A DNA stretch of 64,000 nt, taken from assembly GCA_026392355.1 (NCBI GenBank), contig JAPLCF010000030.1, forward strand, positions 522,259-586,258. The letters run 5' to 3'. Made by a program: the position numbers and the translations under genes. Below are positions 754 to 7,178 of the stretch, in pieces. Each line of letters begins with the position of its first letter. The stretch's first letter is position 1. The notes below the pieces were generated by a model. That model had not been told where the DNA came from. It saw only the letters and a list, made by a program, of their open reading frames with translations, and made no database searches. The DNA comes from Actinomycetota bacterium. GTDB taxonomy: Bacteria > Actinomycetota > Thermoleophilia > Gaiellales > F1-60-MAGs149.

Positions 754-898
754 GTGCGTCTCGTGCCCTCTCAGGTCGATGGTCTCGAAGGTGATACCGC
801 ACGGCCGCAGGAAAGCGCCCGTGCATCTGGCGGCACCTTAGCGAACGTGGCAGCGGGACGGGGTCGGAACCGTCGATTTGATCGCACCGCGACGTTGC

Positions 899-1180
899 TC
901 AGGCAACAAGTGCGATCACCAGAAACGGCACGCTCAAGGCAAGCGTGCCGAGCCCGGTCAGCTGCGTGACACGCCCCTCGGTGCGACGCGCCAGGCCCAG
1001 CAGCACGGTGCCGAGCAGCACGATCAGCACGCCGACGAGGCCGCAGCCACCCGCAATCGCCCCCGCCGTGGGCCTGCCGGCGGCCGCGAAGGCGCTCGAC
1101 AGCACGGCGGCGATCAGCACGAGCCCCACCAGCAGCACGATCAGCCGCAGCGCCGCCGCCCGCCATCCGACCTGATTCAC
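899..1180 (-). CDS. small hydrophobic membrane protein (93 aa), function unknown
   Basis: Its GTG start overlaps the stop of the upstream ABC ATPase (GTGA). The sequence is strongly hydrophobic (LIVLLVGLVLIAAVL..., GLVGVLIVLLGTVLLGL...) with GC-rich third codon positions. The competing plus-strand ORFs are Arg/Pro-rich shadows. Confidence 0.5.
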   Translation of the reverse strand: MNQVGWRAAALRLIVLLVGLVLIAAVLSSAFAAAGRPTAGAIAGGCGLVGVLIVLLGTVLLGLARRTEGRVTQLTGLGTLALSVPFLVIALVA

Positions 1181-2160
1181 GGCTGCAGCGGGTAGGCGCA
1201 GGCCCAGCCGTGTCCGTCCGCCGCATGCTCAAGTTGCGGATCATGCTCGGCGCACGAGGGCTGCGCCACCGGACAGCGCGGATGAAACCGGCAGCCCGAC
1301 GGCGGGTTGAGCGGGCTCGGCACGTCGCCTTGGAGCACGACGCGCTGCTGCGAGCGCGCACGCACCGGATCGGCGACCGGGCGGGCCGACAGCAGCGCGT
1401 GCGAGTACGGGTGGCGCGGCGCGTTGTAGACCTCCTCGCCCGTGCCCTCCTCGACCACGCGCCCGAGGTACATCACCTTGACGCGGTCCGCGAGGCGGCG
1501 GACGACATCGAGGTCGTGCGCAATCACGATGTACGAGAGCCCAAGGTCGCGCTGCAGGTCTTCCAGCAGGTTGACGATCTGCGCCTGCACGGACACGTCG
1601 AGCGCGGAGACCGGTTCGTCGCACACGATCACGCGGGGCTGCATCACCACGGCGCGGGCAATGCCGATGCGCTGGCGCTGACCGCCCGAAAACTCGTGCG
1701 GAAAGCGGTTGTAATGCTCAGGGTTGAGGCCGACGCGCTCCATCGCCTCCTGCACCTTGCGCTTGCGCTCTGCCGGCGTGCCAATGCCGTGGATATCCAG
1801 CGGCTCCTGCACGGACTGGCCGATCCGCATGCGCGGATCGAGCGACGCGATCGGATCCTGGAAGATCATCGTGACCTGCCGGCGGAAGTCGGTCAGGCCA
1901 CGTCCCTTGCGGCGCGTGATGTCCTCACCCATGAACTCGATCGAGCCGGCATCGATGCCCTGCAGGCGCACGAGCCCGCGCGCCAGTGTCGTCTTGCCAC
2001 AGCCAGACTCGCCGACGATCGCGAGCGTCTCGCCTTCGTTGAGCTCGAGATCCACGCCGTCGACGGCCTGCACGCGCCCGACCTCGCGCTGAAACACGAT
2101 GCCGCGCGTAACGGGAAAACCGATGGTGATGCCCGTCGCGCGGAGAATTGGCTCGCTCAT
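1177..2160 (-). CDS. peptide/nickel ABC transporter ATP-binding protein (OppF/DppF type)
   Basis: From [15 protein letters not shown]: Walker [10 protein letters not shown], signature [14 protein letters not shown], Walker [13 protein letters not shown], and an oligopeptide-type C-terminal tail ([11 protein letters not shown]...GCRFHPRCP). The ATG overlaps the upstream stop (ATGA). The longer 381-aa ORF start is a shadow extension. Confidence 0.9.
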
Positions 2161-3167
2161 GCCTGCTCCTCCCCGCTCAGGCGCGCGCCTTCGCGATCGC
2201 GGACGTCTTGCGTGAGATGACACGCGACGGCGGCTGAGCCACGCCCCGTGCTGGTCAGCGCCGGCGCCGGATCCGCACGGCAGACATCCATGGCAAACGG
2301 ACACCGGGGCGCGAAACGACACCCCGCAGGCGGGCGCAGCAGGCTCGGCGGCGTCCCCGGAATCTGATGCAGCCGTTCCGACGCCAGGTTGCGCCCGGGC
2401 AGCGAGGCCAGCAGCCCCCAGGTGTAGGGGTGCTGCGGGTGGGCAAAGAGCTCGTCGACGGTAGCGCGCTCGACGATGCGCCCGGCGTACATCACCGCGA
2501 CCTCATCGCAGAGCTCGGCGACGACACCGAGATCGTGGGTGATCAGCACGATCGCAGCGTCGACCTCGCTGCGCAGGTCGCGCATCAACTCGAGGATCTG
2601 CGCCTGGGTCGTCACGTCGAGTGCCGTCGTTGGCTCGTCGGCGATCAGCAGGCGCGGGCGGTTGAGGAGCGCCATCGCGATCATCACGCGCTGGCGCATG
2701 CCGCCCGACAGCTCCAGCGGGTACGACCGCATGCGGTCCTCGGGGCTGGGGATGCCGACGGCCGCGAGCCCCGCAACCGCACGCTGACGCGCTTCCACCT
2801 TCGAGACCTTCTGATGCAGGCGCACCGCCTCGATCAGCTGCTCGCCGATCCGCATGACCGGGTTCAGCGACGTCATCGGGTCCTGAAAGATCATCGCCAT
2901 GTCGTCGCCGCGCAGGCGCCGCAGTTCGCTCCCGGACAGGCCGATCAGTTCGCGCTCGCCAAGGCGGATGCTGCCCTCGACCGTTGCGGTCTTCGGCAGC
3001 AGGCCCATGATCGACAGGCTCATCGCCGACTTGCCGCAGCCCGATTCGCCGACGATGCCGAGCACCTTGCCGGCATCGACGGACAGGCTCACGCCATCGA
3101 CAGCGCCAACCGGACCGTCATCGGTGCGGAAGGTCGTGCGGAGATTCTCGACGGTGAGCAGTGCCAT
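2157..3167 (-). CDS. peptide/nickel ABC transporter ATP-binding protein (OppD/DppD type)
   Basis: [13 protein letters not shown]..., Walker A GESGCGKS, signature [15 protein letters not shown], Walker [14 protein letters not shown]-terminal HPYTWGLL...GCRFAPRCP. Confidence 0.9.
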
Positions 3168-6027: not shown

Positions 6028-6095
6028 GAGGTCTCCTCCTTGGTTGTGATCATTGGATCGGTGTCCTTTCGAGGGATGGGACAGAGTCAGGGCGA

Positions 6096-7070
6096 CTAGA
6101 GGATCGTTCCGCCACGGGGGTCGAGGGCGTCGCGGAGGCCATCACCGAGCAGGTTGAAGGCCAGCACCGTGACGACGAGCAGCGTGCCGGGGAACACCAT
6201 CAGGAAGGGTGCGTTGATGTAGAGACCGCCGGGCACGGCGTCCGAGATCATGCGCCCCCACGAGGGGATCTCCAGCGGTAGGCCGAAGCCAAGGTACGAC
6301 AACGCGGCCTCGGCGGCGATCGCGCCGGCCACGGACAGGCTGGCGTAGACCGTCAGCGGTCCGATTAGCTGCGGCATCAAATGCCGAAAGACGATCCGCG
6401 AGTTCGAGGCACCAAGCATCCGTGCGGCGGTGACGAACTCGCGGTTGCGGAGCGACAACACCTCGCCGCGGAAGATGCGCCCCGGATAGAACCAGGAGAA
6501 GAAAGCGATGATCAGGATTACGAACCAGAGTGAGGCGCCGAACGCAACCGACGCGGCGATCGCGAAGAGCAGAAACGGGAAGGCGGCGACGATGTCCATC
6601 AGACGCGCGATCACCGTGTCGGTCCAGCCGCCGACGTAGCCCGCGATGACGCCGAGCAGGAGCGCCACGACCATCGTCAGGATCGTCGCCACGATGCCAA
6701 TGATCAGCGAGGTGCGCGCACCGAAGGAGAGCTGCACGAGCATGTCGTAGCCGAGGTTGTTCGACGCCCCGAGCACAAAGCACGCGCGCTCCCCCACGCT
6801 GGCCAGGCCATTGACACAGCCATGCAGCGGCCCGACCGGCAACAGCGTGTAGTCATCAACACCGGTCGAGTTCGACTTGTTGACGGGATGCCCCGTCCAC
6901 GACTCAAACAGCGGTCCCGCCAGCGCAAACAGCACGAGCAGCACAATGAAGGCGAGACTGGCGAGGGCGACGTAGTCGCGACGCAGCCGAGCGAAGGCCA
7001 GCTGGCGTGGCGTGCGTGCCACAACCATCGCCTCGGTCTTCATGTCCTCGAACTGCTCGACGGTCGACAC
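6096..7070 (-). CDS. ABC transporter permease (DppC/OppC-like)
   Basis: Multi-TM protein with the motif REFVTAARMLGASNSRIVFRHLMPQLIGPL. The start is placed at the GTG (VSTVEQFED) behind GGGAGG. The maximal ORF would extend to 7103. Confidence 0.85.
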   Translation of the reverse strand: MSTVEQFEDMKTEAMVVARTPRQLAFARLRRDYVALASLAFIVLLVLFALAGPLFESWTGHPVNKSNSTGVDDYTLLPVGPLHGCVNGLASVGERACFVLGASNNLGYDMLVQLSFGARTSLIIGIVATILTMVVALLLGVIAGYVGGWTDTVIARLMDIVAAFPFLLFAIAASVAFGASLWFVILIIAFFSWFYPGRIFRGEVLSLRNREFVTAARMLGASNSRIVFRHLMPQLIGPLTVYASLSVAGAIAAEAALSYLGFGLPLEIPSWGRMISDAVPGGLYINAPFLMVFPGTLLVVTVLAFNLLGDGLRDALDPRGGTIL

Positions 7071-7178
7071 AGGGTCCACCTCCCTCAGCGCGATAGGGTA
7101 CACCGAAACCGCACCACGCGTTCGGGCAATCCGCTTAACCGTGCGGCAAAACTCGCACGTTTGAGAGGTTACCCCGCG

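Follow-up and report, generated by a model that had tools for sequence, protein, structure and literature searches.

How does a bacterium balance the subunits of its F-type ATP synthase when an unrelated operon separates the gene for the beta subunit from those for alpha and gamma? The question is raised by the atp genes of an uncultured actinobacterium, read from 64,000 nucleotides (nt) of contig JAPLCF010000030.1 (assembly GCA_026392355.1, positions 522,259-586,258); this whole stretch is called the window, and the coordinates below are window positions. Relatives of atpG place the window in a freshwater lineage of the Thermoleophilia/Gaiellales. The atp operon is among the most conserved bacterial gene orders and the textbook case of subunit ratios obtained from one transcript. 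Here, a complete importer operon of the Opp/Dpp type, followed by a gene for a membrane protein of 93 amino acids (aa), lies between atpG and atpD. Judged from the loci compared, this split is a real, old, and lineage-wide gene-order variant in the Gaiellales. The reading that we favor, with a probability of roughly 0.7, is that the importer operon entered the atp operon in an ancestor of the Gaiellales, and that the locus would now be expressed as three tandem transcription units.

Gene order and its recurrence in relatives

On the minus strand, the atpZ-like and atpI-like open reading frames (ORFs) and atpB, E, F, H, A, and G occupy positions 12432-7179, the importer genes and the 93-aa gene 7070-899, and atpD 753-1:

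12432-12277, minus strand: 51-aa small membrane ORF in the atpZ position; coding conservation in 10 loci; its stop overlaps the next start (TGATG)
12277-11861, minus strand: 138-aa membrane ORF in the atpI position; 52-99% identity in relatives
11864-10989, minus strand: atpB (Pfam)
10952-10704, minus strand: atpE (Pfam)
10697-10158, minus strand: atpF (Pfam)
10155-9613, minus strand: atpH (Pfam)
9596-8064, minus strand: atpA (Pfam)
8060-7179, minus strand: atpG (PF00231, 6.8e-89)
7070-6096, minus strand: OppC-type permease (oppC); PF12911 (OppC_N) and PF00528 (BPD_transp_1); best NCBIfam match under the cut-off
6027-4264, minus strand: family-5 substrate-binding lipoprotein of the peptide/nickel/opine class; SBP_bac_5, PF00496, 2.1e-70
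4196-3171, minus strand: OppB-type permease (oppB); PF19300 and PF00528
3167-2157, minus strand: OppD-type ATPase (oppD); PF00005 (ABC_tran) and PF08352 (oligo_HPY)
2160-1177, minus strand: OppF-type ATPase (oppF); PF00005 and PF08352; start at 2160 taken from the translation; ATGA overlap with oppD
1180-899, minus strand: 93-aa membrane protein, probably with three helices; GTGA overlap with the oppF stop; third-position GC 0.87
753-1, minus strand: atpD (beta), first 251 codons; PF02874 and PF00006 (ATP-synt_ab_N and ATP-synt_ab); the gene runs past the window edge

The block from atpB to atpG (7179-11864) encodes subunits a, c, b, delta, alpha, and gamma and is recognized by its Pfam families (PF00119, PF00137, PF00430, PF00213, PF00006/PF00306/PF02874, and PF00231). 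Together with the N-terminal part of beta, these matches identify an F-type ATP synthase cluster, the rest of which comes from orthologous loci. The portion of atpD in the window covers the beta-barrel domain and the beginning of the nucleotide-binding domain, and is 89-100% identical to the full-length 467-aa atpD of relatives, where a 136-aa atpC comes next. The atpC gene lies beyond the window, and the epsilon family (PF02823), like full-length beta, was seen in orthologous loci only. No second atpD occurs within the window. The order of N-type ATPase operons (beta, epsilon, AtpQ/AtpR, a, c, b, alpha, gamma) is not matched, since the genes here run a, c, b, delta, alpha, gamma ... beta, epsilon, and delta is present.

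The names atpZ and atpI, which the first-pass annotation gave to the two small upstream ORFs, hold for their position and not for their family, as Pfam returned no significant hit. The 51-aa ORF reaches PF09527 with an E of only 1.3 and does not qualify as AtpZ, and the 138-aa ORF has no Pfam or NCBIfam match that would make it AtpI; both labels denote position alone. The 51-aa ORF, which precedes the atpI-like one, is glycine-zipper-like and conserved.

Loci were fetched around relatives of atpG, and the window proteins were mapped onto 80 loci, labeled L001 and onward; in the closest of those fetched, L001, atpG is 98% identical. Exact look-ups of the window's own atpG and 93-aa protein returned no entry in the index used, which therefore lacks the source genome. 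The full layout (atpG, oppC, binding protein, oppB, oppD, oppF, 93-aa gene, atpD) is present in eight loci with atpG identities of 82-99%, and six more contigs start with the same layout and terminate within the insert. The importer occupies the same gap in six loci of the Gaiellaceae, in which atpG is only about 56% identical; the order oppC, binding protein, oppB, oppD, oppF is kept in five of them, and L022 has a different one. At least 23 further metagenome contigs from ENA carry a homologue of the 93-aa protein, all in the same order, and a 224-kilobase (kb) soil contig carries the split layout too. Both junction sequences, atpG-oppC and 93-aa gene-atpD, are conserved across relatives. 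Where contigs reach far enough, the 467-aa atpD and the 136-aa atpC are followed by unrelated housekeeping genes (DUF3352, metK, priA, and frr), and a gene for a family-4 glycosyltransferase lies upstream of the atp cluster.

The first-pass annotation had taken atpD-atpC immediately after atpG to be the usual bacterial order and had proposed a comparison with the nearest genomes. The relatives show the same split, and the usual order is borne out further away: atpD directly follows atpG in the next relatives (L032-L034, 47-49% atpG identity), and atpG-atpD is unsplit in all outgroups, namely the Bacillus, Saccharibacteria, proteobacterial, and Amycolatopsis loci. The interruption that separates atpG from atpD thus measures 6.4 kb and contains six genes; in relatives, atpD and atpC are adjacent to each other.

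Candidate promoters and the expression of atpD

The principal sigma factor of Actinobacteria has TANNNT as its -10 consensus. Boxes of this form stand before each of the three gene groups; the promoter and terminator calls given here are all based on sequence conservation:

12542-12534, minus strand: TGCTAGGTT, candidate for the main atp promoter, with a TGn-extended -10-like element (TAGGTT at 12539-12534); the atpZ-like start lies about 95 nt downstream
7159-7140, minus strand: 6-bp hairpin after the atpG stop, without a U tract; weak terminator candidate, read from the sequence
7104-7079, minus strand: importer promoter candidate GGTGTACCCT; -10-like TACCCT at 7100-7095, TGn-extended; Shine-Dalgarno GAGGGAGG at 7086-7079
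950-926, minus strand: terminator-like hairpin of 11 pairs followed by TTTCTGG, within the last 17 codons of the 93-aa ORF; candidate function, from a consensus scan
846-829, minus strand: atpD promoter candidate, 18-nt block GTTCGCTAAGGTGCCGCC; -10-like TAAGGT at 840-835
828-754, minus strand: putative atpD 5' leader of about 75 nt; hairpin at 824-799 near its 5' end; Shine-Dalgarno GAGAGGG at 772-766

The 18-nt block supports a separate start of atpD. Across all 14 loci compared, some of which have just a binding-protein gene in the gap, GTTCGCTAAGGTGCCGCC hardly varies, and the remaining spacer is unalignable. Within the box, T, A, and the final T are the same in all 14, and the forms are GCTAAGGT or GCTATGGT; the Gaiellaceae have GCTAGACT at the same place. 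This box resembles the one before the atpZ-like ORF, where the block CTGCTAGGTTTCC is invariant in all 10 related loci and its flanks diverge. In L022, atpD is immediately preceded by a divergent lipoprotein gene on the minus strand, so it must start its own transcript there; a TAGACT box is present as well. When L009 is compared with L007, homology resumes about 120 nt before atpD, which assigns the box and the leader to the atpD side. No TANNNT box was found in the short atpG-atpD spacer of an unsplit outgroup. On the other side of the gap, a TANNNT box, mostly GGTGTACCCT, follows atpG in 17 of 18 loci, whether oppC or a binding-protein gene comes next; it stands 8-10 nt before a strong Shine-Dalgarno sequence, and the first gene in the gap begins about 25 nt after it. 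In the Gaiellaceae, a conserved TACACT box occupies the same place before oppC.

These patterns favor three co-oriented tandem units, each with its own promoter: the atpZ-like ORF to atpG; oppC, binding protein, oppB, oppD, oppF, and the 93-aa gene; and atpD-atpC. Each unit would be driven by an actinobacterial-type promoter with a TANNNT -10 element, and some transcription would pass across the weak hairpins between units. As in cyanobacteria and Bacteroidetes, a separate mRNA would then supply most of the beta and epsilon subunits, and subunit balance would be set by promoter strength and translation rate rather than by one shared transcript. As to origin, we infer a single ancestral insertion between atpG and atpD, with the split kept since. 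The first-pass annotation had left two possibilities for beta and epsilon, read-through of the transporter genes or a promoter before atpD; the box conserved in 14 of 14 loci, together with the Gaiellaceae and L022, favors the latter. Partial read-through between units is nevertheless likely, because the post-atpG hairpins are weak and mostly without a U tract. The post-atpG spacers of 18 loci fold modestly better than shuffled sequences (mean z -1.0), and a U tract occurs only in L001. The hairpin at 926-950 is stronger than the one after atpG, and wobble pairs preserve some of its pairing in relatives.

Several observations weigh against three separate units. The genes all point the same way with short gaps between them, and the post-atpG hairpins mostly lack a U tract, so that read-through could be substantial. 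The atpD box has no clear -35 element, and a scan of 600-13000 for E. coli-type promoters gave no match, although such a scan is ill-suited to actinobacterial promoters that lack a strong -35. Rather than a promoter, the conserved 18-nt block might mark a site where a regulator binds or where the RNA is processed. Shuffled sequence folds as well as the entire atpD leader (z about 0), and the leader hairpin is statistically indistinguishable from shuffles. The check for a second atp locus covered the window.

Carried further, some of these points would describe a single super-operon, in which a single transcript, started upstream of the atpZ-like ORF, extends across the importer and includes atpD-atpC, and the boxes act as processing or regulatory sites. 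The co-orientation of all 15 genes, with gaps of 145 nt at most, the weakness of the hairpin after atpG, and the failure to find an E. coli-type promoter would suit such a transcript. We regard it as unlikely, however, given that the TANNNT boxes at both junctions are conserved across deep divergence, that the atpD box resembles the one before the atpZ-like ORF, and that a terminator-like hairpin lies at 950-926. The divergent gene directly before atpD in L022, and the gaps with extra genes of more than 10 kb in L020 and L031, also speak against one continuous transcript.

The leader hairpin occurs at the same position in 13 sequences, across lineages, with five pairs changed on both sides. 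No claim is made for a structured RNA element in the atpD leader, since shuffled sequences fold equally well. A search of 1-13000 against Rfam, with E up to 1, returned no family.

Further copies of the two junction boxes within the window are no more numerous than expected by chance. One sequence, TGCTACGGTGCCGC at 18315-18328 on the minus strand, is like the box upstream of atpD with two mismatches; it falls within or close to a small ORF (18105-18362), and a minus-strand gene of 338 aa follows about 160 nt later. It may represent a further promoter of this kind.

The importer and the variable content of the gap

The first-pass annotation described a complete and co-oriented importer operon between atpG and atpD, and both the ORFs and the Pfam matches confirm it. 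The details that it listed are likewise all present: the ATGA overlap of oppD and oppF, the GTGA overlap of oppF and the 93-aa ORF, the 145-nt gap before atpD, and the 6-bp hairpin without a U tract at 7159-7140. With a family-5 binding protein, OppB- and OppC-type BPD_transp_1 permeases, and two oligo_HPY ATPases, the system belongs to the PepT (Opp/Dpp/Nik) importers. A third-position GC of 0.84-0.91 in the minus-strand frames marks them as coding, and alignment with relatives puts the start of oppC at the GTG at 7070, not at the longest-ORF start at 7103.

No curated NCBIfam cut-off is reached for the equivalogs OppA, DppA, NikA, GsiB, and CntA; the best match of the binding protein is DppA, with 103 bits against a cut-off of 1005, and the remaining components likewise fall under their NCBIfam cut-offs. 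The best solved structures for the binding protein are peptide-binding proteins (8upi, DppA), and the substrate is probably a peptide-like compound. The operon shares its five components with Opp/Dpp/Nik importers, and the gene overlaps suggest translational coupling. It differs from them in its unusual order (oppC, binding protein, oppB, oppD, oppF) and in the coupled sixth gene, which is specific to the lineage.

The 93-aa protein encoded by this sixth gene is conserved in relatives, with the motifs AAGRP and LSVPFLV. It has 12 homologue clusters, all of 90-93 aa and with no Pfam domain, and the sole cluster that names an organism is from a metagenome-assembled genome (MAG) of the Gaiellales. 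The homologue contexts inspected, which were those of one 93-aa homologue, all show the same locus position. As a guess, the protein may be an accessory membrane component. In soil Gaiellaceae, a 156-aa anti-sigma-like gene with a weak zf-HC2 match stands directly before atpD (L021:17292-17762, L022:17639-18109, and L081:17359-17829), the place taken by the 93-aa gene in the freshwater clade; its product was compared with the 93-aa protein, and the two are not homologous.

The content of the gap varies among relatives. In L005, L009, L016, L017, and L018, one family-5 binding-protein gene stands alone between atpG and atpD, without permeases or ATPases. The flanks of L007, with the full importer (8541-15008), and of L009, with the lone binding protein (5994-8022), are 96-97% identical (the window equivalent is 7178-875), whereas the two binding-protein genes share 80% identity, with a synonymous divergence (dS) of 0.46. 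The lone binding proteins are intact lipoproteins that evolve faster than their counterparts in full operons; their ratio of nonsynonymous to synonymous change (dN/dS) of 0.3-0.45, against 0.13 in full operons, indicates that their genes are under purifying selection. They stand on long branches, and the binding-protein tree disagrees with the atpG tree. The pattern resembles the replacement of alleles in a variable slot between two very conserved genes, and the difference between L007 and L009 suggests the replacement of a cassette by recombination anchored in atpG and atpD.

Gaps of the Gaiellaceae can hold other genes as well. L020 (11588-17100) and L031 (10945-16900) have extra genes between atpG and the importer, with an atpG-atpD distance of more than 10 kb; the first of these genes encodes a protein of about 350 aa that is, judged by sequence alone, a MoxR-like ATPase. 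The gap of L028 encodes a 561-aa protein.

An extended version of the slot idea can be put forward only tentatively, and we consider it doubtful. The gap would be a maintained slot for expression and exchange, its contents, whether the full importer or a lone binding protein, driven in part by read-through from the strong atp promoter, with this transcription in turn feeding atpD-atpC, with the conserved atpG and atpD as anchors for swaps of transporter alleles by homologous recombination. If this were true, uptake capacity and ATP synthase assembly would be linked.

Selection for co-expression or physical cooperation might also hold the importer or its binding protein beside the ATP synthase genes, making the position more than a historical accident. 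The adjacency does persist from the freshwater clade to the soil Gaiellaceae, and even where permeases and ATPases are missing (L005, L009, and L016-L018) one family-5 gene under purifying selection, with a dN/dS of 0.3-0.45, still fills the gap. To our knowledge, however, nothing links the Opp/Dpp family to the F-ATPase. The gap content also varies, with the MoxR-like ATPase and other genes, the anti-sigma-like gene, and the different order in L022; and the binding proteins evolve fast and are swapped between near-identical genomes, which is more readily expected of a variable slot that is tolerated than of a fixed partnership. A selected partnership therefore appears quite improbable.

Insertion of an importer operon into the housekeeping atp operon, as favored here, differs from the case of an accessory ATPase with a housekeeping atpGDC elsewhere, and from that of a recent mobile island. 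The search for a second copy, confined to the window, leaves some room for the former; nevertheless, both are very improbable. Each of the eight F-type subunits is encoded a single time, in canonical and not N-type order; atpD is 89-100% identical across the clade; and the genes on either side are housekeeping ones, the family-4 glycosyltransferase gene upstream of the cluster and metK, priA, and frr beyond it. The GC content, third-position GC, and codon bias of the insert are those of its flanks, and no integrase or transposase (Pfam), flanking or junction repeat, or shift in composition was found in it. The lack of these marks speaks against a mobile genomic island and, with the unshifted composition, fits an old insertion event. 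An assembly or binning artefact joining two unrelated loci, conceivable for an uncultured lineage with atpD cut at the window edge and flagged for checking by the first-pass annotation, is excluded because dozens of assemblies made independently, for many lakes and projects, contain the same joins; they include the at least 23 further contigs and the 224-kb contig, and both junctions are conserved.

Relation to known atp arrangements

In cyanobacteria and Bacteroidetes, the two atp units usually lie at unrelated places on the chromosome. The Gaiellales locus shares with the cyanobacterial and chloroplast atp1/atp2 arrangement, and with that of Bacteroidetes, the break between gamma and beta, the pairing of beta with epsilon, and the canonical order of the other subunits. 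It differs in that its halves are not at separate loci; they are adjacent and co-oriented, about 6.4 kb apart with only the importer operon between them, and the lineage belongs to the Actinomycetota. Most Cyanobacteria (89.7%) and Bacteroidetes (87.8%) have the break between gamma and beta, with beta and epsilon in a unit of their own, and 78.6% of the surveyed Actinobacteria have a complete atp operon (PMC5709465). Given the split in those two phyla, the use of separate transcripts to balance alpha, beta, and gamma is an already known solution. A changed way of setting this balance, which the first-pass annotation had emphasized, is thus of less significance than it implied.

Mycobacterium and Streptomyces have the standard atpIBEFHAGDC operon. 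Compared with this standard actinobacterial form, as seen in the Amycolatopsis locus L041, the Gaiellales cluster has the same subunits in the same order, the same upstream family-4 glycosyltransferase, and small membrane ORFs before atpB. The difference is that atpD directly follows atpG in the standard operon, whereas here six unrelated genes intervene. The break point itself is known; what sets this locus apart is that the halves are adjacent and co-oriented, that an importer fills the gap, and that the lineage is actinobacterial. Literature searches found no description of the atp split for Gaiellales, and the Gaiella genome paper describes the ATPase only as F-type. A search aimed at atpG of the cultured Gaiella occulta returned only metagenome and MAG relatives, and the layout is known from such assemblies.

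The locus bears on both operon evolution and annotation. A whole actinobacterial order would have long tolerated an unrelated six-gene operon within its atp operon, which adds one independent case for beta-epsilon as a separable expression module. Since the split halves are still adjacent, they offer a natural system for measuring the contributions of read-through and of a separate promoter. For annotation and operon prediction, co-transcription of atpD-atpC with atpG should not be assumed in Gaiellales. The variable content of the gap could also serve as a convenient population-genomics marker for these freshwater bacteria.

A second interruption of an atp operon was seen in L028 (2389-8274), a Gaiellaceae-like locus labeled Thermoleophilia, where four minus-strand genes spanning about 6 kb lie between atpH and atpA.

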